Source: Spirochaetota bacterium (GTDB lineage: Bacteria; Spirochaetota; UBA6919; CBDBPB01). From it: 64,000 nucleotides of DNA. The position numbers and the translations under genes were made by a program. The notes below the pieces were generated by a model. The model worked only from the letters and a program-made list of their open reading frames with translations, had not been told where the DNA came from and ran no database searches. Positions 1 to 13,142 of the stretch are shown piece by piece (within the stretch, counting starts at the first letter, position 1; every line of letters starts with the position of its first letter). The DNA lies in contig CBDBPB010000007.1 in the NCBI GenBank assembly GCA_965208615.1, positions 192,001-256,000 of the forward strand, given 5' to 3'.

Positions 1-500
1 TCATCAATTAGCTCGCCTGATATCAAAGACCTATCCCCATGATAGATATAGCGAACAGTAGATAGCTTTTCTCCATTTGGACTAAATAAGTTTAAGTGTA
101 CAATAATATAATTTTTATCATCATAAAGAGATCTATCCACCTCATAAATTATACCCTGAATGAATAAAGAAAAAGGTATTTCTTTAGAGACATTTATAAT
201 TTCATTAGGAGTTAGATTTTTATTAAAATTAATATTATTATTTTTATAATATTGTTTTATTTTATTGTTCTCAATAACATTATAGCTCTTTTTAAGAAGG
301 TGATATTCTAACTGTTCTTTGAAGTTAAACCTTATATAAGGAGTATTTGTTCGCACATTAAAATATCCTATAGCTATCTTTGCATTTTTTGCTATGCTAT
401 AACCCTGCTTAATATAAACATCAGTTTTTGTTAGCTCAGTACACCCCATAACAAATAGGGAAAAACTAATAACTATTAAATACAGCTTAAAACCCTTCAT
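1..500 (-). CDS. Putative lipoprotein, runs off the left edge (absent from ORF track)
   Basis: Manual translation from ATG at 500: MKGFKLYLIVISFSLFVMG-CTELTKTDVYIK..., open to base 1; basic N-terminus, hydrophobic core, lipobox-like VMG|C; start overlaps the 3' end of the CHAT gene. Confidence 0.75.
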   Translation of the reverse strand, partial: MKGFKLYLIVISFSLFVMGCTELTKTDVYIKQGYSIAKNAKIAIGYFNVRTNTPYIRFNFKEQLEYHLLKKSYNVIENNKIKQYYKNNNINFNKNLTPNEIINVSKEIPFSLFIQGIIYEVDRSLYDDKNYIIVHLNLFSPNGEKLSTVRYIYHGDRSLISGELID

Positions 501-2775
501 ACAATATAAAACCTCCATAGAAAAATAAAGACTTATACTTTTCTTTTGTAGTATTATAGGCATAGTTAAAAGCTTTTTTCTTATTAGCAACTTCTATATA
601 CTTTTTAAAAAATGCAACCATAAAATCTTTACTGGATTGATCTTCTATATCCCATATGGTAGCTAAAATAGAAGTTACACCTGCATAAAAAAAACCTCTT
701 ACTAAACCGACTAACTCTTCCCCTTTATACCTGGTTGATAGACCAGAAGTGCATCCGCTTAGAGATAGAAAGTTAACCTTACTTAGGTTTAACTTATATA
801 TTTCTTTTAAGAAAATTTCATTACTATCATCTAAATAACCAGCCTTATTATGATTATTGTTGTCAACATGACTACACTCAAGATAAGAATAAAGAGGTTT
901 ATTTAAATTAAATCTAATATGTCCACTATAATGAATAATTGAATGAAAGGCAAATTCTTTTAAAATAATTTCTTTTTTAGCATTTCCCCCGATTAATGCA
1001 GAAGAATTATGGAATAAGTTTTTAATGGTATTAGCTTCTTCTAGAGAGCCTTTAAGGTTATTTCTTGGATCTCCTATTATCATGGGATTATCATCTATTA
1101 ATGATTTTGCCTTAAGTGTGCTAATAGATTGAAGGTTAGGCATATAAGAAATTAAAAGCTCTTTTTTGACAGAAAGAAATAAACTATGAACCGGAAAAGA
1201 ATGCAATATATTATAAGGGATTATAATTAATTCTTTAATACTGTCCAAATAGCTTAGTATGGGGTATACCAATATGTTAAGGGCTTTATTCTCATAAAAT
1301 GAGTTGATAAAGTCATCGTTTTTCTTTACGGCATTAAGATAGCCGGTTATAATAGCTTCGAGTTCTTCTGCCTCATAGTCTATATATATGCAGTCAAATA
1401 TTTTATTTCCGATTAAAAATATATAAATCTTATCATCATAATAAAAATACTCTAAAACCAATCCATTATTTGGTATGTGATTTTGAATCTCTATCAAAGA
1501 GTTAAACTTAAACTCAACAAAAGCTTTATAGCCACCTTTTATTGATACAATTTTCTCATCGCAGTAGTACAACATTTTTTCTATGGTGTTAATTTCGTCA
1601 AGGTTATCCAAATAGTCTTTTTTGGAATATAGTTTTTTAAGTTTTTTAACTATTTTATGCCTTTCTTTTAGCAATGAAGAGGATATACCTAAATTTTCAT
1701 GTCTTCCTGATAATATATTTTCCATAAAAAGCTTTGATCTAAAACTTTCAAACAGCTCAAATCCCTTTTTAATATTAGAGGTAATATTAGGGTCATCCAA
1801 TAAAGCGGATATAGCTTTTAAATATATTTCTTCTTTATCTTTGCTACTCAAGAATGAATGCATATTGCTTTCAAGTTTGACTCCCCATTTACTAAGATTT
1901 AACAGGGAGATAGCATGAAGATAGTTATCCTTAGCAGTTTTTTTATCATTTATAGTTTCTAAATAGTTAGCCAATAAAGCGTAGTATTCATAAGTATAAT
2001 AATTTAATTTATCAAAAATCTGATTACTATAGTCCAAATATGCCTTACCCTCTTGGAACATAGATAATTTAAAATAGCTTTCGCAAAATAGTATATAAAC
2101 ATTTCCCAAAAACTTTTTGGCATCTTTCGTATTCTGGCTGATAAAACAGTTTGCAGCTTTTTTAAGATAGTAAAATCCCTTATCGTATTTACCATGCTGC
2201 AATAATAAACCAGCCAATACTTTATTAGCCTGTCCCTCTTCTATCCTAAGGTTATAAGACCTACTAAGGTTAATAGCATTTTTAGCATAGGCAATAGCCT
2301 TATCAAGGTTGTTAGCAAAACCATAATTGATAGCTAATCCAAAGTCATTTTTGATTTTAGACTTTATTATATTTTTATTATTCGATTTGGAAATTATATT
2401 ATCATATATCCCATTAGCTTTTATATTATGTTCAAGAGTAGTTTTACCGAGATTATATAAGGCAATTGCTAAGCCATTATATGCCTTAGCTTGTTTAAAA
2501 TGCAAGTCTAAGTCATAAAACCTTTTAAGAGCATCATCAATCAGGTTTATGGTATATTTTGCTAAGTATTCCATAAACTCAAATTGTGATTCACCATAAG
2601 CAGCCCAAATTCCATTATAGCTTGCTTTTAGTAAAAGAGCTGAAATATTATTATTGTGTGAAAGGTTATATACCTTTTCTAGTAGTGGAAAGGCCTGTAA
2701 AGGGTGTTTATTATCCAAATACTTTTTAGCCTTTTCAATTAGTTCATCGAGGTTTAGCTTTTGACTATTTTGCAT
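487..2775 (-). CDS. TPR-CHAT domain protein (caspase/HetF-like cysteine protease)
   Basis: N-terminal helical TPR-like repeats; CHAT hallmarks LIIIPYNILHSFP, IIHYSGH (catalytic His), LSGCTSG (catalytic Cys), GLVRGFFYAGVTSILATIWDIED, FFYGGFILY. Confidence 0.93.
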   Translation of the reverse strand: MQNSQKLNLDELIEKAKKYLDNKHPLQAFPLLEKVYNLSHNNNISALLLKASYNGIWAAYGESQFEFMEYLAKYTINLIDDALKRFYDLDLHFKQAKAYNGLAIALYNLGKTTLEHNIKANGIYDNIISKSNNKNIIKSKIKNDFGLAINYGFANNLDKAIAYAKNAINLSRSYNLRIEEGQANKVLAGLLLQHGKYDKGFYYLKKAANCFISQNTKDAKKFLGNVYILFCESYFKLSMFQEGKAYLDYSNQIFDKLNYYTYEYYALLANYLETINDKKTAKDNYLHAISLLNLSKWGVKLESNMHSFLSSKDKEEIYLKAISALLDDPNITSNIKKGFELFESFRSKLFMENILSGRHENLGISSSLLKERHKIVKKLKKLYSKKDYLDNLDEINTIEKMLYYCDEKIVSIKGGYKAFVEFKFNSLIEIQNHIPNNGLVLEYFYYDDKIYIFLIGNKIFDCIYIDYEAEELEAIITGYLNAVKKNDDFINSFYENKALNILVYPILSYLDSIKELIIIPYNILHSFPVHSLFLSVKKELLISYMPNLQSISTLKAKSLIDDNPMIIGDPRNNLKGSLEEANTIKNLFHNSSALIGGNAKKEIILKEFAFHSIIHYSGHIRFNLNKPLYSYLECSHVDNNNHNKAGYLDDSNEIFLKEIYKLNLSKVNFLSLSGCTSGLSTRYKGEELVGLVRGFFYAGVTSILATIWDIEDQSSKDFMVAFFKKYIEVANKKKAFNYAYNTTKEKYKSLFFYGGFILYEGF

Positions 2776-2805
2776 ATTGTTTTAATGCACTTCTATTTAT
2801 TATAA

Positions 2806-4068
2806 CTATTTATTATAACTATAATAGTTAGCAAGCATCTTATTATTTAATTTATTAAATTGGCTATCACTAAGGCTCTTAGAATTGCTATTTAGAATAT
2901 CTTTTATTTTTAATAAAGTTTTATCGGATAACTCATTACCGTTTATAAGATTATTAAGCTCGTTTATTGATAGATTATATTTTTCTTGCACTTTTTCAAT
3001 GGATAATCCAAGGGATTTTACTTTGGATAAAAAGTCATTAGGTTTATTAATATTTTTTTTATCATTAAACATTAAGTGGATAGAAATTATAAGACTATCT
3101 AGTTTTTTATCCCCTGTGGTTGAGGATCTTCTAAGGTTAAGGTTTGTGGATATATTATCTATATCGTTTATAAACTGAATTACGTCATCTTTGTTGGGAC
3201 TCATATTACCTCCTTGTCTAAATAAAAGGTTTTTGTTTTTTAAGAGGCTAAAGACTTCGAATATCCCTTGTTGTATAGAGGATTTAACCTCTTCTATTGG
3301 TTCATCTATTTTTTTAGCAATAGATTGGGGGTCTTCTTTAGCAAAAAAGAACTGTTCCAAGATTTTTCTTATTTTATGTTCTTTTATTTGGTTTAGGGTA
3401 TCATGTTTTATTTTAAAAGATTCCTCTTTTATAAATGAATTAAGGTCATCGAAGTCGAAGGGTATATCGTGGAGCTTGATTATAGCCTTTAGTTCTAGTA
3501 TACCCCTATAAAGCCATGTAGAATAAACAGAAGCTTTACAACCAATGATCTCTGCAATTTCTCTGTTGGAGAGGTTAATAGGAATACACAGTTTAAATAT
3601 TATGGCATTTCTATGATTTTCATTTTTAATTGAATATAGTACTTTTCTAAAAAAGTCTTTAATTTCATCTTTTATCAATGATATATTATTATCCACTGGC
3701 GCTTTTAATATGGATGTAATATTACTGGCATTTGGGAGGTTTTCATCTAAGGAAAACTTAATTAGGGATTTATTTAATTTTTTATTTTTATAAAAGCTAA
3801 AAAACCTTAGTAATATTATATGTTTAATATAGTTTATAAATCTTTTTGGAGAACTTGTATCATACTTTTCTATGGAGTTTTTAAACTCAAAAACGAAGTA
3901 GTTTTGCAATAAATCTTCTGCATCTTCAACATTCATTTTTTTAGCTAATAAAAAGTTAAGTAGATGCCTATTACATTTGGTAAAAATAATTTCAAAGGCC
4001 TCATTAGAGTTTGTTTTTCTATATATGTCAATTAGTTTTTCTATTTCAAGCTCTTGAAGGTTAACCAT
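2806..4068 (-). CDS. ECF-type sigma-70 family factor with a second region-4-like HTH and a C-terminal XRE-like HTH
   Basis: Region 2-like AFEIIF..DAEDLLQNYF..FINYIKHI; region 4-like LSNREIAEIIGCKASVYSTWLYRGILELK; second EDPQSIAKKIDEPIEEVKSSIQQG; C-terminal LGLSIEKVQEKYNLSINELNNLING; AAAGGAGG upstream. Confidence 0.75.
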   Translation of the reverse strand: MVNLQELEIEKLIDIYRKTNSNEAFEIIFTKCNRHLLNFLLAKKMNVEDAEDLLQNYFVFEFKNSIEKYDTSSPKRFINYIKHIILLRFFSFYKNKKLNKSLIKFSLDENLPNASNITSILKAPVDNNISLIKDEIKDFFRKVLYSIKNENHRNAIIFKLCIPINLSNREIAEIIGCKASVYSTWLYRGILELKAIIKLHDIPFDFDDLNSFIKEESFKIKHDTLNQIKEHKIRKILEQFFFAKEDPQSIAKKIDEPIEEVKSSIQQGIFEVFSLLKNKNLLFRQGGNMSPNKDDVIQFINDIDNISTNLNLRRSSTTGDKKLDSLIISIHLMFNDKKNINKPNDFLSKVKSLGLSIEKVQEKYNLSINELNNLINGNELSDKTLLKIKDILNSNSKSLSDSQFNKLNNKMLANYYSYNK

Positions 4069-4309
4069 AGATAATATAAGCCTCCTTTAATATTTTTATA
4101 CAGTTAAGGTATTAATTTTCTTTCGCAAAAAGGCAAAAATAAAGTTTTTTTTTATATTAGTTATATTTGACGCTAATTTAAAATAATAAAAGCGGATTTA
4201 TTTTTTAGTTAGTATTTTAAAAAATAGTAAGTTTAGATTTTGAGTTCTAACTTAAAATTTGATTAATTTTAAGTTTCTATATATACTTGTTTAACATATA
4301 TTAATTTGG

Positions 4310-4615
4310 ATGATGATTATGAAATTAAAAGGTAAAACAGATATAATAATATTTACATATATAGTTTGTGTATTTGTAGTTAGTTTTTTAGGTATTATAA
4401 ATAACTTTGTAATAATAGCTAAATCGATATTTTTTAGTTTGAGCGATAGTTTTTTAATATTAAGCAGTATAATAACACTTCCATTTTTTATTTTTGGTTT
4501 TCTTAGCATATTTTGGATATATAAAAGGACGAAAAAGGGTTGGCATTTTAGTTTTTTTTACAGTTCATTTAGCATAATTATAAGTATTTTTTTTAGCTTT
4601 CTTTTTGTCAGTTAG
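4310..4615 (+). CDS. Small multi-TM membrane ORF, probably the frameshifted N-terminus of the PBP1A gene
   Basis: Three hydrophobic segments; removing one T from the T8 run at 4587-4594 joins it in frame to 4605..7859. Confidence 0.5.
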   Translation: MMIMKLKGKTDIIIFTYIVCVFVVSFLGIINNFVIIAKSIFFSLSDSFLILSSIITLPFFIFGFLSIFWIYKRTKKGWHFSFFYSSFSIIISIFFSFLFVS

Positions 4616-7600
4616 TATAACTTATTATAATACGGATAGTAAGGCTGTAAATAAGCTTAATAGCAACTTAGCAAAAGATAGACATAATGAACTCGTTGAG
4701 CCAGGAATTAAAATAAAATATAGTTCTAATAATAGTGTTAAAAAGCTATCGTTTAAGATAATTTTTATAACAATAGTTATAACCACCATATTCACTAGTC
4801 TAATGGGTTTTTGGATATGGTATTTAAAAAAATCAGCTATTAGAGATTTGTTTGGCATAAGTCAAAGTGAATCTGAGTCTGGTGAAAGGTTAGTTATTTT
4901 GAGGCTTGAGTTGGCCAGTGTTATAATTATTTTATTGGGAGCTATTTATTTTGGTAGAGAATTAGGTTTTGCCATAAACGACCTTAGAACTGGTCATGAC
5001 ATAAAAAAGCTTGATGACTATAGTGCATACGAGTTACCAACTAAGGTTTTTGATATAAATGGAGAAAAAATAACAGAGTTCTTTTTGGCTAAGCGACAAA
5101 TTATACCTTATAATCATCTTCCGGATAGCCTAATAGGTGCGTTAATTGCTATGGAGGATAATAGATTTTATATTCATAGGGGAGTTGATAGTTGTGGAAT
5201 ATTAAGAGCTATGTTTAATAATGTTATAGCCGGAAGAATTGTAGAAGGGGGTAGTACTATATCCCAGCAGTTGGCAAAGCTTCTTTTTACAAAAAGAGAA
5301 AGAACTCTTGGACGTAAGGCTTTAGAAATATGGTTAACTGTTCAAATAGAGAAGAGGTATAGCAAACAAGAGATTTTAGAAAAGTATTTTAATCATATTT
5401 ACTTTGATCATGGTGTATATGGGGTAGAAGCGGCATCCAAATACTTTTTTGGAAAGTCTGTAAGGGATATAAATATTGCTGAATCTGCTATGTTGGTCTC
5501 TATACCACCAAGACCTAGGAAATACTCACCTTTTAGGAATCCTAAACAGGCAAATAAAAAGCAATATATTGTATTATCCAGCATGTTAAAGCATGGTATG
5601 TTGCCTAAAGAGGATATTGACAGTATACATAAGGATTTTTGGATAAAAATGAGTAATAGGCTTATTGAAAAGAATTATAGTTCTGCATGGCTTGATAGGG
5701 ATGATAAGGCTCCATATTTTTCGGAGTATGTAAGACAAAAAGTTAAAAGCTATCTCGAAAAGGAATATGGTGATAATAATTATATTAATACAGGTGGACT
5801 TAAAATCTATACTACCCTTGATATAAGTTTACAGAAAAAGGCTTTAGAGTTTTTAAGAGTACAATTGGCTAAGCAGGATAAGATATTTAAAGCTGGAACA
5901 AAAAACATTTATCGTAGGCTTAAAAAGGAATATACTAATATTTTTAATTTTATTGGCCTAAGCTTTTTGGATAATGGTTATAAGTTTCGTTATAAGCAAA
6001 ATTATCAAAAGGTGTTTGAGCAGGTTAATAAGGAGGTATCAACTTTAGGTTTTATAAATGGCGTATTTGGTCTTGATAGGATAAATCATATTTTGAATAG
6101 GTATAAAAAGAGTTTAGAAGAGGAAAATCTAAATCTAAAAACAGAGGGAGCTTTAGTTGCTATGGAGCCAAATACTGGTTATGTGATGGCTATGGTTGGC
6201 GGGAGAAGGTTTAGCACTAATAATCAGCTAAACAGAGCTTTATCAAAAAGACAACCCGGATCGGCTTTTAAAGCATTTGTTTATGGTGCGGCTTTTAAGA
6301 GTAAATTATTTTATCCTGCTAAGGTTATGTTTGATGATGTATATAACTATGATGATGAATGGATAATCCATAATGCCGAGGATAAGTATTCTGGGCCTAC
6401 TACTTTGAGAGAGGCTATTAAGTTTTCTAAAAATACTATTGCGGTTAAGGTGATAGCTAAATTGGGGGTAAAAAGGGTAATTGATTTTGCTTCTAGTCTT
6501 TTGGGGATTAAAAAAAATAGGTTGCCTAGTGATCCATCTATTGCTTTGGGTACAGGGGAGATCTCTCCACTAGAAATGACTAGGGGGATTAGTGTATATG
6601 CTAATGGAGGCAAGGCTGTAGAACCTATAACTATATTAAAGATTGTTGATCGTTATGGACATACTATAAAGGACTATAGAGCGGAAATTATTCAGAAGCG
6701 ACTGACTGAAAAAGAAAAAGGTAAATCTAATCAGATAATATCTCCCGAGTTAGCCTATTTGATGACTAACACCTTACAGGAGGTTATTGACGGAGGTAGT
6801 GGTTATGCAGTTAGGTCTAATGGATTTCAGCTTCCTGCCGCGGGTAAGACTGGTACCACACAAAGTAATAAAGATGCATGGTTTGCAGGATATACTCCTA
6901 ATTTGGCTGCTGTTGTATGGGTTGGCTTTGATAAGGGTGTATCCTTGGGTCATAATCAGTATGGGGGTACGGTAGCGGCTCCGGTGTGGAGTAAGTTTAT
7001 GAAATTTGCTCATAATATACCGCGGTATAAATATAAAAAACAACATTTTAACAAAGCAAAAAATATTGAATATCATAGAGTATGCAAAGTTACAGGCCTC
7101 CGAGTTAGCGATGAGTGTATAGAAGCAGGACATGAGTCTGTTCAGGATATATTTCTTCCAGGATCGTATCCCAAGGAAAAGTGTGAGGGACATAAAATAA
7201 ATGAAAATGACTCCCAGAATATTGATGATATATTAGACATGGCAAATAACGGTATTATCCAACAGGATGGGGAACCTGAAGATACGAGTGATAATAATAC
7301 CAAAGATGAGATACCTCAACAAAGTGAGGATAATACTCCTACACAGAATACCAATCCTAAAGATAGTCCTACACAGAATACCAATCCTAAAGGTAACCCT
7401 ACACAGAATACCAATCCTAAAGATAGTCCTACACAGAATACTAATCCTAAAGGTAACCCTACACAGAATACCAATCCTAAAGATAGTCCTACACAGAATA
7501 CTAATCCTAAAGCTAACCCTACACAGAATACCAATCCTAAAGGTAACCCTACACAGAATACCAATCCTAAAGGTAACCCTACACAGAATACCAATCCTAA

Positions 7601-7859
7601 AGATAGTCCTACACAGAATACTAATCCTAAAGATAGTCCTACACAGAATACCAATCCTAAAGATAGTCCTACACAGAATACCAATCCTAAAGGTAACCCT
7701 ACACAGAATACCAATCCTAAAGATAGTCCTACACAGAATACTAATCCTAAAGCTAACCCTACACAGAATACCAATCCTAAAGATAGTCCTACACAGAATA
7801 CTAATCCTAAAGATAGTCCTACACAGAATACTAATCCTAAAGATAGTCCTACACAGTAG
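4605..7859 (+). CDS. mrcA: Class A penicillin-binding protein 1A (transglycosylase + transpeptidase) with C-terminal repeat tail
   Basis: GT motifs EDNRFYIHRG, GGSTISQQLAK, RKALE; TP motifs QPGSAFK (SxxK), SKN, GKTGT. Confidence 0.92.
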   Translation: MSVSITYYNTDSKAVNKLNSNLAKDRHNELVEPGIKIKYSSNNSVKKLSFKIIFITIVITTIFTSLMGFWIWYLKKSAIRDLFGISQSESESGERLVILRLELASVIIILLGAIYFGRELGFAINDLRTGHDIKKLDDYSAYELPTKVFDINGEKITEFFLAKRQIIPYNHLPDSLIGALIAMEDNRFYIHRGVDSCGILRAMFNNVIAGRIVEGGSTISQQLAKLLFTKRERTLGRKALEIWLTVQIEKRYSKQEILEKYFNHIYFDHGVYGVEAASKYFFGKSVRDINIAESAMLVSIPPRPRKYSPFRNPKQANKKQYIVLSSMLKHGMLPKEDIDSIHKDFWIKMSNRLIEKNYSSAWLDRDDKAPYFSEYVRQKVKSYLEKEYGDNNYINTGGLKIYTTLDISLQKKALEFLRVQLAKQDKIFKAGTKNIYRRLKKEYTNIFNFIGLSFLDNGYKFRYKQNYQKVFEQVNKEVSTLGFINGVFGLDRINHILNRYKKSLEEENLNLKTEGALVAMEPNTGYVMAMVGGRRFSTNNQLNRALSKRQPGSAFKAFVYGAAFKSKLFYPAKVMFDDVYNYDDEWIIHNAEDKYSGPTTLREAIKFSKNTIAVKVIAKLGVKRVIDFASSLLGIKKNRLPSDPSIALGTGEISPLEMTRGISVYANGGKAVEPITILKIVDRYGHTIKDYRAEIIQKRLTEKEKGKSNQIISPELAYLMTNTLQEVIDGGSGYAVRSNGFQLPAAGKTGTTQSNKDAWFAGYTPNLAAVVWVGFDKGVSLGHNQYGGTVAAPVWSKFMKFAHNIPRYKYKKQHFNKAKNIEYHRVCKVTGLRVSDECIEAGHESVQDIFLPGSYPKEKCEGHKINENDSQNIDDILDMANNGIIQQDGEPEDTSDNNTKDEIPQQSEDNTPTQNTNPKDSPTQNTNPKGNPTQNTNPKDSPTQNTNPKGNPTQNTNPKDSPTQNTNPKANPTQNTNPKGNPTQNTNPKGNPTQNTNPKDSPTQNTNPKDSPTQNTNPKDSPTQNTNPKGNPTQNTNPKDSPTQNTNPKANPTQNTNPKDSPTQNTNPKDSPTQNTNPKDSPTQ
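7338..7856 (+). repeat. 17 full copies plus a partial copy of a 30-bp coding tandem repeat, PTQNTNPK(DS/GN/AN)
   Basis: Unit cctacacagaatac(c/t)aatcctaaag(atagt/gtaac/ctaac), contiguous up to the PBP1A stop codon. Confidence 0.98.
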
Positions 7860-8034
7860 AGTGCCTATTTGATATTTTAGTATAATTAGTATTTATATTA
7901 TTTTTTTAGATTGCAACTGGATGTTTATGGTGTTAAATTTTATATAGATTTTAACCAATTGTTGTATATTTTAATCCTGATTAGGATCTATTATAATTCA
8001 ATGTTTAAATAATCCAAGGAAAGATTTGTGTTCT

Positions 8035-9582
8035 ATGAGTAGTATAAAGGATATTTCAAAAGTTTTAATTGTAAATGATTCCACCAGCGAGCAAGCTTTA
8101 ATTAGTGATATGCTAATTATTTTTCATACTAAAATTGTAGAAAATGAATTTCATTTATTTAATGTACTTAGCTCTTGGGAACCTAATATTATTATTATGA
8201 ATAATGTTCTAATTGACTCAGACGGATATACACTTGCTGAGAAGATTCGTTCTAATTCTAATTTTGATTATATTCCAATTATTCTAACAGCATCTCAGGA
8301 TCATCCAGTGGATATTCAAAGGGCTTATGAAGTAGGCTGTAATTCTTATTTGAACAAGCCTTTTTCTAAAGAGAAGCTTTTGGATACTTTTTCATCTTTC
8401 GGCTCTAAGCATAGGAGTATTTCTACCAATCTTCTTATAGTAGAGGATTCAAGGGCAATTCGTACTATTATATCGGCTCCATTTATGAAGAATCAATATG
8501 TTGTTGAAGAGGCAGAAAATGGTGAGCATGCTCTTGAGATCCTAAAAACCTTTACTCCTGATGTGATGACTGTTGATATTGATATGCCAAAAATGGATGG
8601 CTTAACCTTGTGTGATAGGGTTAGGAAGATCGAACGTTTAAAAGATGTACCTGTAGTTGTTATTTCTGGAACTATTGACCATGAAATCAGGAGTAAGGGA
8701 TATGAAGTGGGAGCTATTGAGTTTTTCCAAAAGCCTTTTAGCTCCGAGGATATATTTTATTATATTGATCAACTTGTAGAGAGTCTTAGGAGTGATAATG
8801 ATGTAAAGATTTTGGTAGTAGAGGATTCTCCTATGGAACAGCATATTATAAAGTTTGCTCTTATGAGGGGGGGGTATAGACCCTATGTTATACCTAGTGG
8901 TGAGGAGGCTATAGAGCTTGCTAATAATGTTGAATTTGATCTCATATTAATGGATATATTGTTAGAGGGACAAGATGGATTATCTACATGCCGTATGTTA
9001 AAAGAAAATCCTAAGACTAGGGATATAGCTATTATAATGGTTACAGGGATAACTGATTCTATATTACAGAGTTTTGATGTTGGTGCAAACGATTATATCG
9101 GAAAGCCTTTTAGTACTGAGGAACTTGTTAGCAGGGTAAAGATTAATTTGGATAAGGCTTTATCGGTTGAGAAACAAAAAAGTTATCAGCTTTCTGTTGA
9201 AAAAAACTTTGAGTATAATGTTAAAAAACAGGATATGATTATAAAATATCTCATAAATTATATTAATGATTTAGTTATAATCATAGACTCTAGTGCCGCA
9301 CTTATTTATTGTAATAATGCTCTTATAGAGCTAACCGGAAGTACAGAAAAACAGCTTAAGGAAGAAAACTGGATAAAAATATTATTCCAGGAGCTGGTTG
9401 AACTCAACTACTTTACAGAGTGGCTAAAAGAAGCTAGTGAGGGCAGTGGTATTAGAGAACGGCAACTTGATATTAGTATTAATAATTTTAAAAAAACCTC
9501 TGTCAGCTGGAGTATCTTTTTACTAAAGGATATAAACGAGGATATAGAGGCTTATTTTATTGTAGGCAAACTTCCTTCATAG
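8035..9582 (+). CDS. Multi-receiver protein (3 REC + C-terminal PAS-like), no recognisable output domain
   Basis: Three CheY-like domains each ending in KPF; REC2 TVDIDMP and REC3 LMDILL keep the Asp, REC1 has IIMNN; PAS-like LVIIIDSSAALIYCNNAL; ATG at 8035 preferred over TTG at 8026. Confidence 0.85.
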   Translation: MSSIKDISKVLIVNDSTSEQALISDMLIIFHTKIVENEFHLFNVLSSWEPNIIIMNNVLIDSDGYTLAEKIRSNSNFDYIPIILTASQDHPVDIQRAYEVGCNSYLNKPFSKEKLLDTFSSFGSKHRSISTNLLIVEDSRAIRTIISAPFMKNQYVVEEAENGEHALEILKTFTPDVMTVDIDMPKMDGLTLCDRVRKIERLKDVPVVVISGTIDHEIRSKGYEVGAIEFFQKPFSSEDIFYYIDQLVESLRSDNDVKILVVEDSPMEQHIIKFALMRGGYRPYVIPSGEEAIELANNVEFDLILMDILLEGQDGLSTCRMLKENPKTRDIAIIMVTGITDSILQSFDVGANDYIGKPFSTEELVSRVKINLDKALSVEKQKSYQLSVEKNFEYNVKKQDMIIKYLINYINDLVIIIDSSAALIYCNNALIELTGSTEKQLKEENWIKILFQELVELNYFTEWLKEASEGSGIRERQLDISINNFKKTSVSWSIFLLKDINEDIEAYFIVGKLPS

Positions 9583-9705
9583 ACTAATTTTTACGCTAAT
9601 CAATATTGATAATTTATAATAATAAAATTGACAAATTTTATCATTTTGGATTAATTTAATATTTTTTTAAAACGAAATATCTTAAATAAACCGGATAACT
9701 ATATT

Positions 9706-11535
9706 ATGATAGCAAGAATAAATAATCTTACTAAGTCCTATGCCAATAAGGAAGTGTTTTATAACATATCCTTTTCTATTATGAAAAATAAAAAGATAGG
9801 TCTTTTGGGCAATAATGGTGTTGGGAAAACTAGTCTCATGAACTGTATTTCTGGTATGGATAAGGAGTTTAATGGTAGTATAGAATTTAAATCTGGTTCT
9901 AGTATAGCTTATCTACATCAGAGTTTATATTTAAATCCCGATAGAACATTGGCTGAGGAGTGTTTACTACATTTTGATCCTGTTATAGACCTTAGGAATA
10001 AGGTTAAGGATATCGAACTTAATATTCATAAGGATTCCTCATTGCATAAAACTTATGGCGATATGCTACACCTTATTGAGGCAGAAGATGGATATAATAT
10101 CGAAAATAAAGTAGAGAAAGTTCTTAGTGGGTTAGGCTTTAGCAAAGATCAAATGAATCAAAAAATATCTACTATGAGTGGCGGTGAACAACGAAGAGGT
10201 CTTTTAGGAAAAATACTATTATCCGAAGCCAATCTCCTACTGCTCGATGAACCCACTAATCACCTTGATATATTCGCTATTAAATGGCTAGAAAGCTTTT
10301 TAAAGGGATATAAAGGGGCTATATTGATGGTATCCCATGACGTTAACCTTCTGGACGGACTTGTAGATGAGATTATAGAAATCGAAAATAATGGTATATG
10401 CTCTTATGGAGGGAATTATCAGTTTTACTTAAAAGAAAAAATAAAAAACTCGGAAAGCCTTAAAAAAGCCTATGACTTACAACAAAAACAAATTAAAAAA
10501 GAAAACGACTTCATTAGAATTAATATTGCAGGACAAAAAACTAAACAAGCTCAAAGTAGACGTAAAAAACTCGATAAGATAGATAGAATTACCTATATAA
10601 ATAAACAAAAAGAATGGTCATTCCATTTTTCTAATGATGTAATGCACCATAGAAACATTTTAGAGCTTAATAATCTGTCAAAAAACTATGGAAATAAAAC
10701 TATATTTAATAACTTATCCCTTAAAGTTGAAAAAGGGGATAGAATTGGACTAATAGGACAAAACGGTTGTGGGAAAACCTCTCTTATAAATACTATCTTG
10801 GATGGTAATAATAAAGCCGTAAAACTCAATACTAATATCAGAATTGCTTATTTTTCTCAGGGTGGACTAAACCTGAATATGGATTTATCGGTTTTGGATA
10901 ATATACAAAATAGTAAAATAACTGAAACAGAGGCTAGGAGCTATTTAGGCTTATTCCAGTTTAGCGGGGATAACGTTTTTAAGCCTGTGAACGTGTTAAG
11001 CGGAGGTGAGAAAACTAGATTAGCTATTCTAAAAATAATATTGATGCCTTGTGATCTTCTAATCCTTGATGAGCCTACTAATCACCTTGATATAGTAACA
11101 AGGGGTATATTATCACGGGCTCTGAAAGACTATAAAGGGACTATTTTAGCTGTATCACATGATCGAGGTTTTATTGACCACTTTGCAAATAGAATAGTTT
11201 TAATCGCCTCTCAAAAAGCCTATTCCTTTTATGGTAGGTATTCTGAAAACGAAAAAGAAATACTTAAACTAATTAGAGAACCATTAAATAATAATAAGGC
11301 ATATCCTAAAGAAGAGACTAAGACTAAAAAGAAAAATATTAACATATACAAAATTGATAGAATCGAGAAAATAATCGATGAACTAGAGCAAAAAAAAAAT
11401 AAACTTACCTCTTTATTAACTGACCCATCAATATACTCTAACTATCTTAAGTTAACAGAAATACAAAAAGAACTTGATGAAATAAATACCCTGTTAAAGA
11501 ATAGATATTCGGAATGGGAAAAACTCCATAACTAA
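9706..11535 (+). CDS. ABC-F family ATP-binding protein (Uup/YheS-like)
   Basis: Two ABC domains (GNNGVGKT, GQNGCGKT; MSGGE/LSGGE; LDEPTNHLD twice), no TM segments, C-terminal coiled coil ending YSEWEKL. Confidence 0.92.
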   Translation: MIARINNLTKSYANKEVFYNISFSIMKNKKIGLLGNNGVGKTSLMNCISGMDKEFNGSIEFKSGSSIAYLHQSLYLNPDRTLAEECLLHFDPVIDLRNKVKDIELNIHKDSSLHKTYGDMLHLIEAEDGYNIENKVEKVLSGLGFSKDQMNQKISTMSGGEQRRGLLGKILLSEANLLLLDEPTNHLDIFAIKWLESFLKGYKGAILMVSHDVNLLDGLVDEIIEIENNGICSYGGNYQFYLKEKIKNSESLKKAYDLQQKQIKKENDFIRINIAGQKTKQAQSRRKKLDKIDRITYINKQKEWSFHFSNDVMHHRNILELNNLSKNYGNKTIFNNLSLKVEKGDRIGLIGQNGCGKTSLINTILDGNNKAVKLNTNIRIAYFSQGGLNLNMDLSVLDNIQNSKITETEARSYLGLFQFSGDNVFKPVNVLSGGEKTRLAILKIILMPCDLLILDEPTNHLDIVTRGILSRALKDYKGTILAVSHDRGFIDHFANRIVLIASQKAYSFYGRYSENEKEILKLIREPLNNNKAYPKEETKTKKKNINIYKIDRIEKIIDELEQKKNKLTSLLTDPSIYSNYLKLTEIQKELDEINTLLKNRYSEWEKLHN

Positions 11536-11549
11536 TAAAATATAGGTGG

Positions 11550-13142
11550 ATGATGTATAGCATAGAAATTAGTAAAAATGGCTATCCAACGTTAAAGTTC
11601 AATGAAAGTTATATACATAGTAGGTATAACCCCGTGTTAGAGGGACTCCGCCTTACTAAAACCCTTGATATTGATAATAAAAACTGTATTATTGTATTCG
11701 GAATGGGTCTAGGTTATCATATTATGCCTTTGCTGGAACTAGGTATTAGGATTCTTGTTATTGAGAAAAATCCTGATATTATTAACTGCTTAAGGCAGGT
11801 TGGCTATACTAATAGATTTAGCAGTATTCATTTATATACAGGGGATGTTTTGGGTATAGAGCTGTGGCTGTCTGATAGGGTTAGTGAGGGGGATAGTGTT
11901 ATATTTTTCGATCATAATCCGTCTAGCAAACTGGATACCCATTACTATAATACTGCTAAGAATATCGCTTATGGTATTATTAAGTCTAACATACACAGCT
12001 ATATTACTAGCTTGGGCTTTTCTAAAAGGTGGCATGAGAACGTTATTAAAAATGTTATACACCTAAATAGATTTTTAAAGGTTAATAAAAACGTTGATAT
12101 GCCTGTTTTTATTATTGGAAGCGGACCAACACTTGATCAGAATATAGACAAGCTGGCAAAAATAAAAAATAAAGGGATATTAATATGTTTGGCTCCATCT
12201 TATAGACGTTTACTGGCTTCGAATATAATACCAGACTTTGTTATATCAACCGATGGGGGTATAGCTAATCGAATGCACATTTCTGGCCATAGCTTTAATA
12301 ATAAATCCATTTTGATTACCAGCCTCTCTGTAAGCACTAATATAATTAATACCTGGAAAGGGAATATCCTCATTATTAATAACGGACTCACCATTGAGGA
12401 CTACCTATTAGACGATTTTATTAAAATACCTATGCAGGGTACTGTTGCATCTGCCGCCTTTTTGTTTGCTAAAAAGTTGTTTAGGGGATCTGTTTTTTTA
12501 TTTGGTATAGATTTTGCCTTTACTAATGGATTATATCATCATAAAGGTGCAGGGCTAGAGAGTAAGATACTTTTTACTACTAACAAACTAAGCCCTTTTG
12601 AAAATAAATATTATAAACTTATAACCGGATTTAATATTAGCACTGTTAAAAATTACAGCGGCAAGGATATATTAACTAGTTTACCTATGGAGTCTTATCT
12701 TAGATGGTTTAGCAGGGAAGTGCTTAATGGTGATAGGGATGTCTATGTTGTTGGTAATAACGGAGCTAAGATTGATGGTGTTAAAAATATTACTACTGAA
12801 GAGCTTTGTCTTAGGTATGATGATGTTGATAAGGACAAAATGTTAAAGCCTATGGTTAACTCTTTATCAATAAATGAGATCAATAGGATTAAGGAAAGGG
12901 TATTTAAACTTTATCAAGGCTATATGCAGATTAAAAAAGAAATCCGTAATAATTATGAGGCCATTTATTCTCTTCTGGAAAAGGATAGTGAAAAAGCTAT
13001 TGGACAAATATTCTCTTTTCAAAATATGAGACTAATCAAAAAGCTTAAAAGAAATAACCTTTCTACTGAGGATTATAACGATTTTTCCTATTCCATAAAT
13101 AGAACCTTAAACATATTAAAGAGGTCAATATCTGGCTGTTAG
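11550..13142 (+). CDS. Motility-associated factor (Maf / DUF115, MptE-like) protein
   Basis: YIHSRYNP, FGMGLGYH, IIGSGPTL, PDFVISTDGG, GTVA, LFGIDFAF. Confidence 0.8.
   Translation: MMYSIEISKNGYPTLKFNESYIHSRYNPVLEGLRLTKTLDIDNKNCIIVFGMGLGYHIMPLLELGIRILVIEKNPDIINCLRQVGYTNRFSSIHLYTGDVLGIELWLSDRVSEGDSVIFFDHNPSSKLDTHYYNTAKNIAYGIIKSNIHSYITSLGFSKRWHENVIKNVIHLNRFLKVNKNVDMPVFIIGSGPTLDQNIDKLAKIKNKGILICLAPSYRRLLASNIIPDFVISTDGGIANRMHISGHSFNNKSILITSLSVSTNIINTWKGNILIINNGLTIEDYLLDDFIKIPMQGTVASAAFLFAKKLFRGSVFLFGIDFAFTNGLYHHKGAGLESKILFTTNKLSPFENKYYKLITGFNISTVKNYSGKDILTSLPMESYLRWFSREVLNGDRDVYVVGNNGAKIDGVKNITTEELCLRYDDVDKDKMLKPMVNSLSINEINRIKERVFKLYQGYMQIKKEIRNNYEAIYSLLEKDSEKAIGQIFSFQNMRLIKKLKRNNLSTEDYNDFSYSINRTLNILKRSISGC

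Follow-up and report, generated by a model that had tools for sequence, protein, structure and literature searches.

At the left end of a 64,000-nucleotide stretch of DNA from a Spirochaetota bacterium (G000:C7:192001-256000, hereafter the window), three tightly packed open reading frames (ORFs) on the minus strand encode, in the order of transcription, a sigma factor of the extracytoplasmic function (ECF) type, a protease that joins tetratricopeptide repeats (TPR) to a CHAT domain, and a lipoprotein. The sigma and CHAT genes are separated by a gap of 30 bp, and the end of the CHAT gene overlaps the start of the lipoprotein gene by 14 bp, at 487-500. A first-pass annotation made from the sequence of the window alone had described this layout, and all three ORFs lie where it placed them. 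The genome to which the window belongs (G000) is 2.46 Mb long, with a GC content of 31%, and is assembled in 9 contigs. The annotation also proposed that the sigma factor and the protease form a protease-gated transcription system outside CRISPR. We find that the two are probably functionally linked in some way, since their adjacency is kept across families, they co-occur in all five species examined in the class, and no anti-sigma gene is found beside them. We tentatively read the locus as a lineage-specific regulatory pair, in which the sigma factor carries its own regulatory module and the TPR-CHAT protein is a partner that may bind and cut the extension of the sigma factor.

The product of the first gene, which the annotation had called an atypical ECF-like sigma, is indeed a member of the sigma-70 family, with sigma-2 and sigma-4 folds followed by a long extension. 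Its score against TIGR02937 is 48.0 bits, where 42.9 are required, and the alignment takes in residues 23-194 and positions 1-162 of the 165 in the model; its matches to the Pfam models Sigma70_r2 and r4_2 fall below their cut-offs. A profile of the sigma family aligns residues 8-201 with residues 4-185 of the 187 residues of SigW (E 6.6e-4), and residues 5-201 with E. coli RpoE. An AlphaFold2 model of the protein, built on 9 sequences (mean pLDDT 72.7, pTM 0.64), was compared with 48,161 solved chains, and VIA-align superposed SigW on residues 6-200 (Z 8.0) and CnrH on residues 7-201 (Z 7.5). A different reading of the first 280 residues, as a group-3 sigma factor with sigma-2, sigma-3 and sigma-4 domains, was considered, as Foldseek and VIA-align also aligned a stretch of about 280 residues with sigma-28, sigma-B and sigma-32. 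We rejected it in favour of an ECF core followed by a second sigma-4 domain, because both helix-turn-helix (HTH) domains match sigma-4 in sequence and in fold, and because full-length ECF sigma factors end at residue 201.

The extension of about 220 residues that follows this core is conserved along its whole length in 9/9 aligned family members, and is truncated in P0008. From its start to its end it consists of a second sigma-4-like HTH, a linker, an HTH of the XRE/Cro type and a terminal helix (Table 1). The linker has pLDDT values below 50 at residues 278-289 and 307-315, although its sequence is conserved there, and its two consensus motifs, LLFRxGGxM and TRxSxTTGDxxLD, might mark a site of cleavage or binding. 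Over residues ~340-396 the closest folds to the XRE domain given by VIA-align are HipB (6.9), DdrO (6.9) and ImmR (6.7), the range with SinR included being Z 6.6-6.9.

The family to which this sigma factor belongs is small. A word-indexed search of 5.8 billion proteins returned 8 clusters at E <=1e-5, one of them named Spirochaetota by a source. When the extension alone was compared with 1.84 billion representatives, 10 proteins matched: 7 are full-length or near full-length sigma factors of the family (the query's own included), 2 are fragments (P0022 and P0025), and the last, P0026, is a repeat protein whose match was judged spurious. The extension is thus confined to the sigma family in that set. 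No description of the family was found in open-access papers or on bioRxiv. With three HTH domains and only 8-10 clusters worldwide, the family would be unusual even without a link to a protease. As a side observation, the ESM Atlas neighbours of the extension (window 2809-3465, residues 202-420) are stand-alone proteins of ~150-235 amino acids from Bacillota and phages that combine Sigma70_r4 with HTH_3, at scores of 0.84-0.86 that give no more than a lead; one possible origin of the family is the joining of an ECF sigma factor to a two-HTH protein of this kind. A shorter paralogue is encoded in a relative, G001 (L026 (G001:C9) 1315-2067), by a 251-aa frame with 36% identity over residues 5-198; it is without the extension, and no CHAT gene adjoins it.

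The second gene encodes a TPR-CHAT protein that, as the annotation had claimed, appears to be cytoplasmic and has its catalytic residues intact. The CHAT domain matches PF12770 with an E value of 6.6e-32 (111.5 bits), and the dyad, H615-Y-S-G-H619 and G674-C675 (in LSGC), is invariant in 10/10 orthologues, which align over their full length with a mean column identity of 63%. Like the sigma factor, the protein is rare outside the class: among the 11 clusters listed for it, 8 are close. The protein has no N-terminal signal sequence and no membrane-spanning stretch, the highest 19-residue Kyte-Doolittle mean being 1.56, inside the CHAT domain. No anti-sigma family was matched in Pfam or NCBIfam at E <=1, a search that included no dedicated comparison with the N-terminal domain of the anti-sigma factor DdvA. 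Since it has neither a hydrophobic span nor an anti-sigma domain match, we take the protein to be cytoplasmic and stand-alone. Its AlphaFold2 model (pLDDT 78.8, pTM 0.72) shows TPR-like helices from residue 2 onwards, forming a superhelix that is followed by a caspase-like domain, the architecture of separase and Craspase. The best Foldseek matches of the model are to Csx29 of Craspase (E 1e-12 to 1e-10, TM 0.36-0.50; for 8eey_B, E 1.1e-12 and TM 0.43/0.44), and the other top matches are separase and DdvA (8rw5 and 8rot, E 7e-11 to 9e-11), all of these at 10-14% identity. At the level of sequence nothing comparable was found in the PDB: phmmer found 0 matches in the PDB at E <=1, and a profile of the ten orthologues found no Csx29 in the PDB at E <=10, but separase alone, at E ~2.

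Table 1. Features of the sigma/TPR-CHAT locus, in window coordinates.
Feature	Positions	Strand	Details
Sigma factor gene	2806..4068	-	ORF, 420 aa; ECF-type core (residues 1-201) and conserved extension of ~220 aa
Sigma-2 domain, residues 4-98	3775..4059	-	VIA-align: 2q1z SigE 4..98, Z 8.2; 2o7g SigC region 2 5..94, Z 7.7
First sigma-4 domain, residues 122-204	3457..3705	-	VIA-align: 3hug SigL sigma-4 122..204, Z 8.2; 6dxo BldN 136..197, Z 7.3, root-mean-square deviation (rmsd) 1.2; TIGR02937 alignment ends at 194
Second sigma-4-like HTH, residues 218-280, first part of extension	3229..3417	-	5fgm SigR region 4, Z 10.6, rmsd 1.8 over 62 residues; 2h27 sigmaE region 4 on -35 DNA, Z 9.1; NF009172 at 215-278
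Linker, residues 281-325	3094..3228	-	Conserved in sequence, predicted unstructured; LLFRxGGxM and TRxSxTTGDxxLD in consensus; R284 and D324 invariant
XRE/Cro-type HTH, residues 338-396	2881..3057	-	PF01381 (HTH_3) at residues 351-393, 27.1 bits (cut-off 23)
Terminal helix of sigma, after XRE HTH	2809..2880	-	
Sigma-CHAT spacer	2776..2805	-	30 bp
TPR-CHAT protease gene	487..2775	-	ORF, 762 aa; TPR superhelix ~residues 1-430, CHAT residues 438-762
Codon of catalytic His619 (HYSGH)	919..921	-	Codon checked
Codon of catalytic Cys675 (LSGC)	751..753	-	Codon checked
Lipoprotein gene	1..500	-	179 aa from ATG at 500; ends 39 bases left of window
AT-rich region between sigma and divergent class A penicillin-binding protein genes	4069..4604	.	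GC ~0.23

A TPR-CHAT protease with a His-Cys dyad that is genetically linked to an ECF-type sigma factor is also found in type III-E Craspase (Cas7-11, Csx29, Csx30 and RpoE). In Craspase, Csx29 cuts Csx30, Csx30 binds RpoE with a Kd of ~0.2 uM, RpoE is resistant to cleavage, and proteolysis is thought to release the activity of the sigma factor (PMC9825189). The locus described here differs in having no Cas7-11, CRISPR array, Csx30 or Csx31 among its neighbours, to which the search for Cas7-11 was confined. The protease has no sequence-level similarity to Csx29 by phmmer or by profile against the PDB, and shares 11-14% identity with it in structural alignments. Instead of a separate substrate such as Csx30, there is a sigma factor with an extension of its own. 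A second parallel is the DdvS/DdvA pair of Myxococcus xanthus, where an ECF sigma factor likewise has a TPR-CHAT partner that is unconnected with type III-E. DdvA is a transmembrane anti-sigma factor whose periplasmic part is the TPR-CHAT, the only characterised anti-sigma factor with such a domain according to its authors, and CHAT proteolysis is proposed to start the release of the sigma factor (PMC11506125). DdvA has an N-terminal zinc-binding anti-sigma domain, a transmembrane helix and a periplasmic TPR-CHAT, and forms a dimer, whereas the protein encoded in the window has no hydrophobic span and no match to an anti-sigma domain. The divisome-linked CHAT-family protease HetF of Anabaena, which degrades PatU3 (PMC9457339), resembles the proposed pair in that a CHAT protease acts on one specific regulatory protein; PatU3 is not a sigma factor, and HetF is set beside the present protein by description.

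The two closest folds, Csx29 (E 1e-12) and DdvA (E 7e-11), both come from sigma circuits that are linked to defence (PMC9825189; PMC11506125), so that an anti-phage or abortive-infection module has to be weighed, in which infection would switch on the CHAT protease in the manner of Craspase and the cell would then reprogram its transcription or be killed. The annotation had allowed for such a role, which we consider very improbable. PADLOC models matched 0/3 of the operon proteins, and no sequence-level relation to Csx29 was found. The neighbouring genes, over a range of ~6 kb on the left side and ~5.5 kb on the right, include no cas gene, no CRISPR array and no mobile-element gene, and the tandem repeats at 1-12000 are not CRISPR-like. 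They include no anti-sigma gene either, so the annotation's view that the locus has neither a CRISPR context nor a separate anti-sigma gene stands for this neighbourhood. Both genes, moreover, are found in 5/5 species of the class with identities that follow taxonomy, as expected of vertical inheritance and unlike the patchy distribution of defence islands.

The extension of the sigma factor can also be set against the known modes of ECF regulation. C-terminal extensions are the second most common of these, present in 19 groups (PMC7826278), and the protein described here resembles ECF41, ECF42 and ECF238 in combining an ECF core with a conserved extension of more than 50 amino acids and with no anti-sigma gene nearby. 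The types of extension named in the available text of that survey are SnoaL-like, TPR, Cys-rich, DUF1835 and transmembrane; none is the combination of a sigma-4-like domain with an XRE HTH seen here, for none of them does that text report cleavage by a partner protease, and the term CHAT occurs 0 times in the main text of the survey (PMC7826278). If the extension were indeed removed by the protease, the sigma factor would be its own substrate and would be inactive until the pro-part is cut off, much as in classical pro-sigma factors. In Bacillus subtilis, pro-sigmaE and pro-sigmaK have short, N-terminal pro-sequences that are processed by the membrane aspartic or metallo-proteases SpoIIGA and SpoIVFB, respectively, whereas the proposed pro-part here is C-terminal and the protease is of the CHAT type. 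We found no description of a stand-alone cytoplasmic TPR-CHAT protein paired with an extended sigma factor in open-access papers or on bioRxiv. The annotation's suggestion of a possibly undescribed module therefore stands only in a narrower sense, for a cytoplasmic TPR-CHAT protein on its own and with no anti-sigma factor, since DdvS and DdvA have already been published as an ECF sigma factor with a TPR-CHAT partner outside type III-E (PMC11506125).

The class of the window is represented in our collection by exactly 5 species genomes: G000 itself, G001 and G002 from the same order, G003, and G004 from another family. Orthologues of both the CHAT gene and the sigma gene are present in 5/5 of these, so the two gene families co-occur as the annotation expected; the other 36 genomes searched, outside the class, gave only weak and partial matches. 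The two genes are adjacent in 2/5 genomes, G000 and G004. In G004 the sigma orthologue is divided between two contigs. Contig C558 ends with its N-terminal 298 residues (E 1e-34 against the family member P0024), and contig C350 starts with an 82-aa open frame, 48 bp before the start of the CHAT orthologue, which aligns end to end with the C-terminus of P0024 (residues 359-435 of 437; E 5e-6, pairwise BLASTP) and with residues 358-414 of the sigma factor in the window (E 0.048, BLASTP). The two frames fit a direct join, since the contig ends leave 2 and 1 spare bases and have no sequence overlap. From these alignments we conclude that the order of sigma then CHAT, their orientation and the short spacer appear to recur in G004, at ~33-37% protein identity and with every other flank different.

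In the G004 sigma orthologue an in-frame TAA lies exactly at LLFRxGG, directly followed by AGGAG and, 16 nt further, by an ATG (L020 (G004:C558) 1690-1730), and the TTGD motif is lost in the downstream part (L005 (G004:C350) 2-250). This stop codon could mean that the gene is naturally split, with the C-terminal part made as a protein of its own beside the sigma factor, that the extension is decaying, or that the assembly, in 650 contigs, is wrong at this point.

A third case of adjacency may exist in a further lineage: the one contig recorded for sigma cluster P0007 and the one recorded for CHAT cluster P0016 are both 11,333 bases long, and are probably the same contig. Other searches for linkage returned little. 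No further pairs were found in the 13 loci scanned around sigma and CHAT paralogues in G001, G003 and other genomes. A scan of genome contigs with the whole sigma alignment was discarded as a search for the family, having picked up the generic ECF region-2 motif and, with it, 27 unrelated ECF loci and no family member; these loci (326 kb) served as a background in which 0/27 match the CHAT orthologue profile. A scan of metagenome contigs with the extension alone (3 of 4 sequences) found one contig of 11,641 bases, the same size as G002:C71, and no new context.

One explanation of the adjacency is that there is no functional link, and that the two genes, each working on its own, stand side by side as left-over or accidental synteny in a compact genome. 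G000 is in fact smaller than its relatives (2.46 Mb vs 3.5-4.9 Mb), co-occurrence in 5/5 related genomes is what shared descent alone would give, and in the three genomes where the genes are unlinked the neighbours are different in each. Nor do scans for regulatory signals help: the AT-rich region between the sigma gene and its divergent neighbour presumably holds a promoter, yet 41 promoter-like sites were counted vs 37.1 +/- 6.1 in shuffles, with no excess over chance, and 2 terminator-like sites vs 1.8 by chance. Accidental synteny is nonetheless unlikely in our estimation, given the recurrence of order, orientation and spacing in so divergent a genome as G004, the contig of 11,333 bases that probably carries both genes in a further lineage, and the absence of CHAT matches from all 27 unrelated ECF loci.

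How much the adjacency in G004 should count can be judged from other gene pairs of the same two genomes. As a control we sampled 400 kb of the ~4.3 Mb of G004, taking the opening 20 kb from each of its 20 longest contigs, and called ORFs of at least 100 aa with a crude caller, reverse best hits being judged within the sample only. The control is small and biased to conserved genes. Reciprocal best hits in G000 were obtained for 81/286 ORFs, at a median identity of 36%, and neighbouring pairs with orthologues were still neighbours in G000 in 9/31 cases (9/24 when co-directional, 9/18 when the gap was <=100 bp). Every one of these nine belongs to one complex, one pathway or a classic operon: TrkH/TrkA, RimM/TrmD/L19 (the rimM-trmD-rplS operon), GuaB/GuaA, SufB/SufC, SufS/NifU, OppD/OppF and ZnuA/C/B. 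Adjacency that survived the divergence of G000 and G004 thus marked functional partners in 9/9 sampled cases. A physical contact is also hinted at by complex prediction, in which the full CHAT protein was modelled with sigma residues 202-420 on shallow alignments. The median ipSAE was 0.39 (0.22, 0.47 and 0.39), against 0.00 for the best of 3 controls, with runs agreeing in at least 77% of contacts and a partner pLDDT of at least 57.

The main rival to the reading of a protease and its substrate is plain co-expression, with accidental synteny next. Under co-expression the sigma factor would still be regulated through its extension, and the input would be a different one: the XRE domain might bind DNA or a ligand, the Ser/Thr-rich motif might be phosphorylated, or a protease other than CHAT might act there. 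The CHAT and lipoprotein genes would simply be transcribed with the sigma factor, or by it as output genes, with the protease acting on other substrates. ECF sigma factors are commonly found in operons with genes of their own regulon, which is in keeping with this explanation. The CHAT and lipoprotein genes, furthermore, form the tighter unit, their 14-bp overlap being kept in 3/3 genomes of the order (exact in G001, and in G002 if the second Met is the start), and in G001 they stand alone with their own upstream region. The CHAT orthologue also follows other signalling genes, the gene directly upstream being a PAS-PAS-GGDEF gene in G002 (L015 6-1457) and a REC-HD-GYP gene, after a gap of 9 bp, in G003 (L016 9881-10906); in G001 it is a small divergent ORF. 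Such positions behind genes of cyclic di-GMP enzymes may hint at a wider tie of the protease to signalling, or may be chance in genomes rich in these genes. Against co-expression alone stand the control, in which retained adjacency was seen only for partners in a complex or pathway or for the rimM-trmD-rplS operon, and the weak pass of the complex prediction over controls at 0.00. Nor was a promoter motif found that would tie the sigma and CHAT upstream regions together, in a test with almost no power; in the 4 sigma upstream regions a shared bipartite 5+4 motif occurred 0 times vs 0.11 in shuffles. On balance we think it doubtful that co-expression is the whole explanation.

Several results weigh against our preferred reading, that the CHAT protease binds and cuts the extension of the sigma factor. 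In 3/5 genomes (G001, G002 and G003) the sigma gene is on one contig and the CHAT gene on another, among unrelated neighbours, and in G001 the CHAT-lipoprotein pair starts a transcription unit of its own. The pairing that the annotation hoped to see in a survey of gene neighbourhoods is therefore upheld in the distant G004 and missing from most of the class. The G004 case itself depends on a short fragment of low similarity, placed where a contig ends, which the family profile alone missed (E 2.3). Sigma clusters on contigs of 75.9, 36.4 and 580.6 kb are unlinked, because no CHAT cluster sits on a contig of equal size, and a search for short CHAT fragments that might belong to short sigma-bearing contigs found none among 6,289 candidates. 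The predicted complex of CHAT and sigma extension passes only weakly: in calibration the mark was reached by 116/157 solved complexes and 2/215 mismatched pairs, but only 18/157 solved complexes pass with a score <=0.60 and both passing mismatches scored that low. By the tool's own statement, passes in the range of 0.39 are wrong more often than not, except where the pairing was already likely on other grounds. Finally, in type III-E the sigma factor RpoE itself is not cut by Csx29 (PMC9825189), a point that also speaks for co-expression.

The mechanism that we propose for the pair can be laid out as follows. The sigma factor would carry, in place of an anti-sigma factor, its own regulatory module, made of the second sigma-4-like domain, the unstructured linker and the XRE HTH. 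The TPR-CHAT protein, presumably co-transcribed from its position 30 bp downstream, would bind this extension, as the complex prediction weakly suggests, and may cut it in the conserved linker. Such a cut would free the sigma core from the module of second sigma-4 and XRE domain, so that transcription would be gated by proteolysis of the sigma factor itself, which would in effect be a pro-sigma with a C-terminal pro-part; the direction of the switch, toward activity, is our assumption. The translationally coupled, LpoB-like lipoprotein would be an accessory specific to the order, perhaps a tie to the cell envelope. This model of binding and cutting, which we rate only slightly above plain co-expression, explains why a protease stands at the place where ECF operons usually carry an anti-sigma gene, and why an unstructured linker is conserved. 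The in-frame stop codon with its AGGAG at the LLFRxGG position in G004 fits two separable modules. In its most far-reaching form, the model is of a CRISPR-independent switch without an anti-sigma factor, in which the CHAT protease would cut at LLFRxGG or TRxSxTTGD in the linker; the second sigma-4 and XRE HTH, acting as a fused decoy or tether, would thereby be parted from the sigma-2/sigma-4 core, with the coupled lipoprotein feeding in an envelope signal; that all of these details hold together is unlikely.

Were the proposed pair to work in this way, it would provide the first example of a pro-sigma whose C-terminal pro-part is removed by a caspase-like enzyme, and a new kind of ECF regulation whose extension is a duplicated sigma-4 domain with an XRE HTH. 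Caspase-like control of sigma factors would then reach beyond CRISPR type III-E and the membrane anti-sigma factor DdvA, to a minimal two-protein circuit in the cytoplasm with the sigma factor as its own substrate. A protease-gated transcription switch as compact as this might also serve as a tool.

The third gene of the operon encodes a protein that, from the ATG at 500, begins MKGFKLYLIVISFSLFVMGC, with a signal peptide and lipobox that were read by eye only. It has no Pfam match, and scores 49.8 bits against NF033169 (lipo_LIC10494), below the cut-off of 70. Its ESM Atlas neighbours are LpoB/GNA1162/CsgG-like (score 0.96) and are named as LpoB family, with PF13036 found on only 10-27% of their members, which makes the assignment a lead only. 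G001 and G002 retain the lipoprotein gene next to the CHAT gene, and G003 and G004 do not. Lipoproteins of NF033169 occur in other spirochaete families, and the CHAT search found no match in the three genomes covered of one such family, f11 (G011, G025 and G038).

At the junction of the sigma and CHAT genes, a perfect 13-bp tandem duplication (2.3 copies, at 2793-2822) runs from the final codons of the sigma gene across its stop codon and into the spacer; with one copy fewer, the spacer would be 17 bp. To the left, the annotation had advised inspecting the sequence beyond the window for more operon members. In the 12 kb read there, the lipoprotein gene ends 39 bases out, and the genes that follow encode a methyltransferase, a cation diffusion facilitator (CDF) transporter, FolB and GroEL. 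On the right flank the first gene is divergent and encodes a class A penicillin-binding protein (PBP) with Transgly and Transpeptidase domains (window 4605-7859), the C-terminal end of which consists of 17.5 tandem copies of a 30-bp unit (7333-7856). Each unit encodes ten proline- and threonine-rich residues, NPTQNTNPK followed by D, G or A, with S or N after it. LpoB is an activator of PBPs, and LpoB-like proteins are the Atlas neighbours of the lipoprotein encoded in the operon, which may be a coincidence. Further to the right, at 8026-9582, a 518-aa protein carries three receiver domains in series, followed by a C-terminal part without Pfam assignment.

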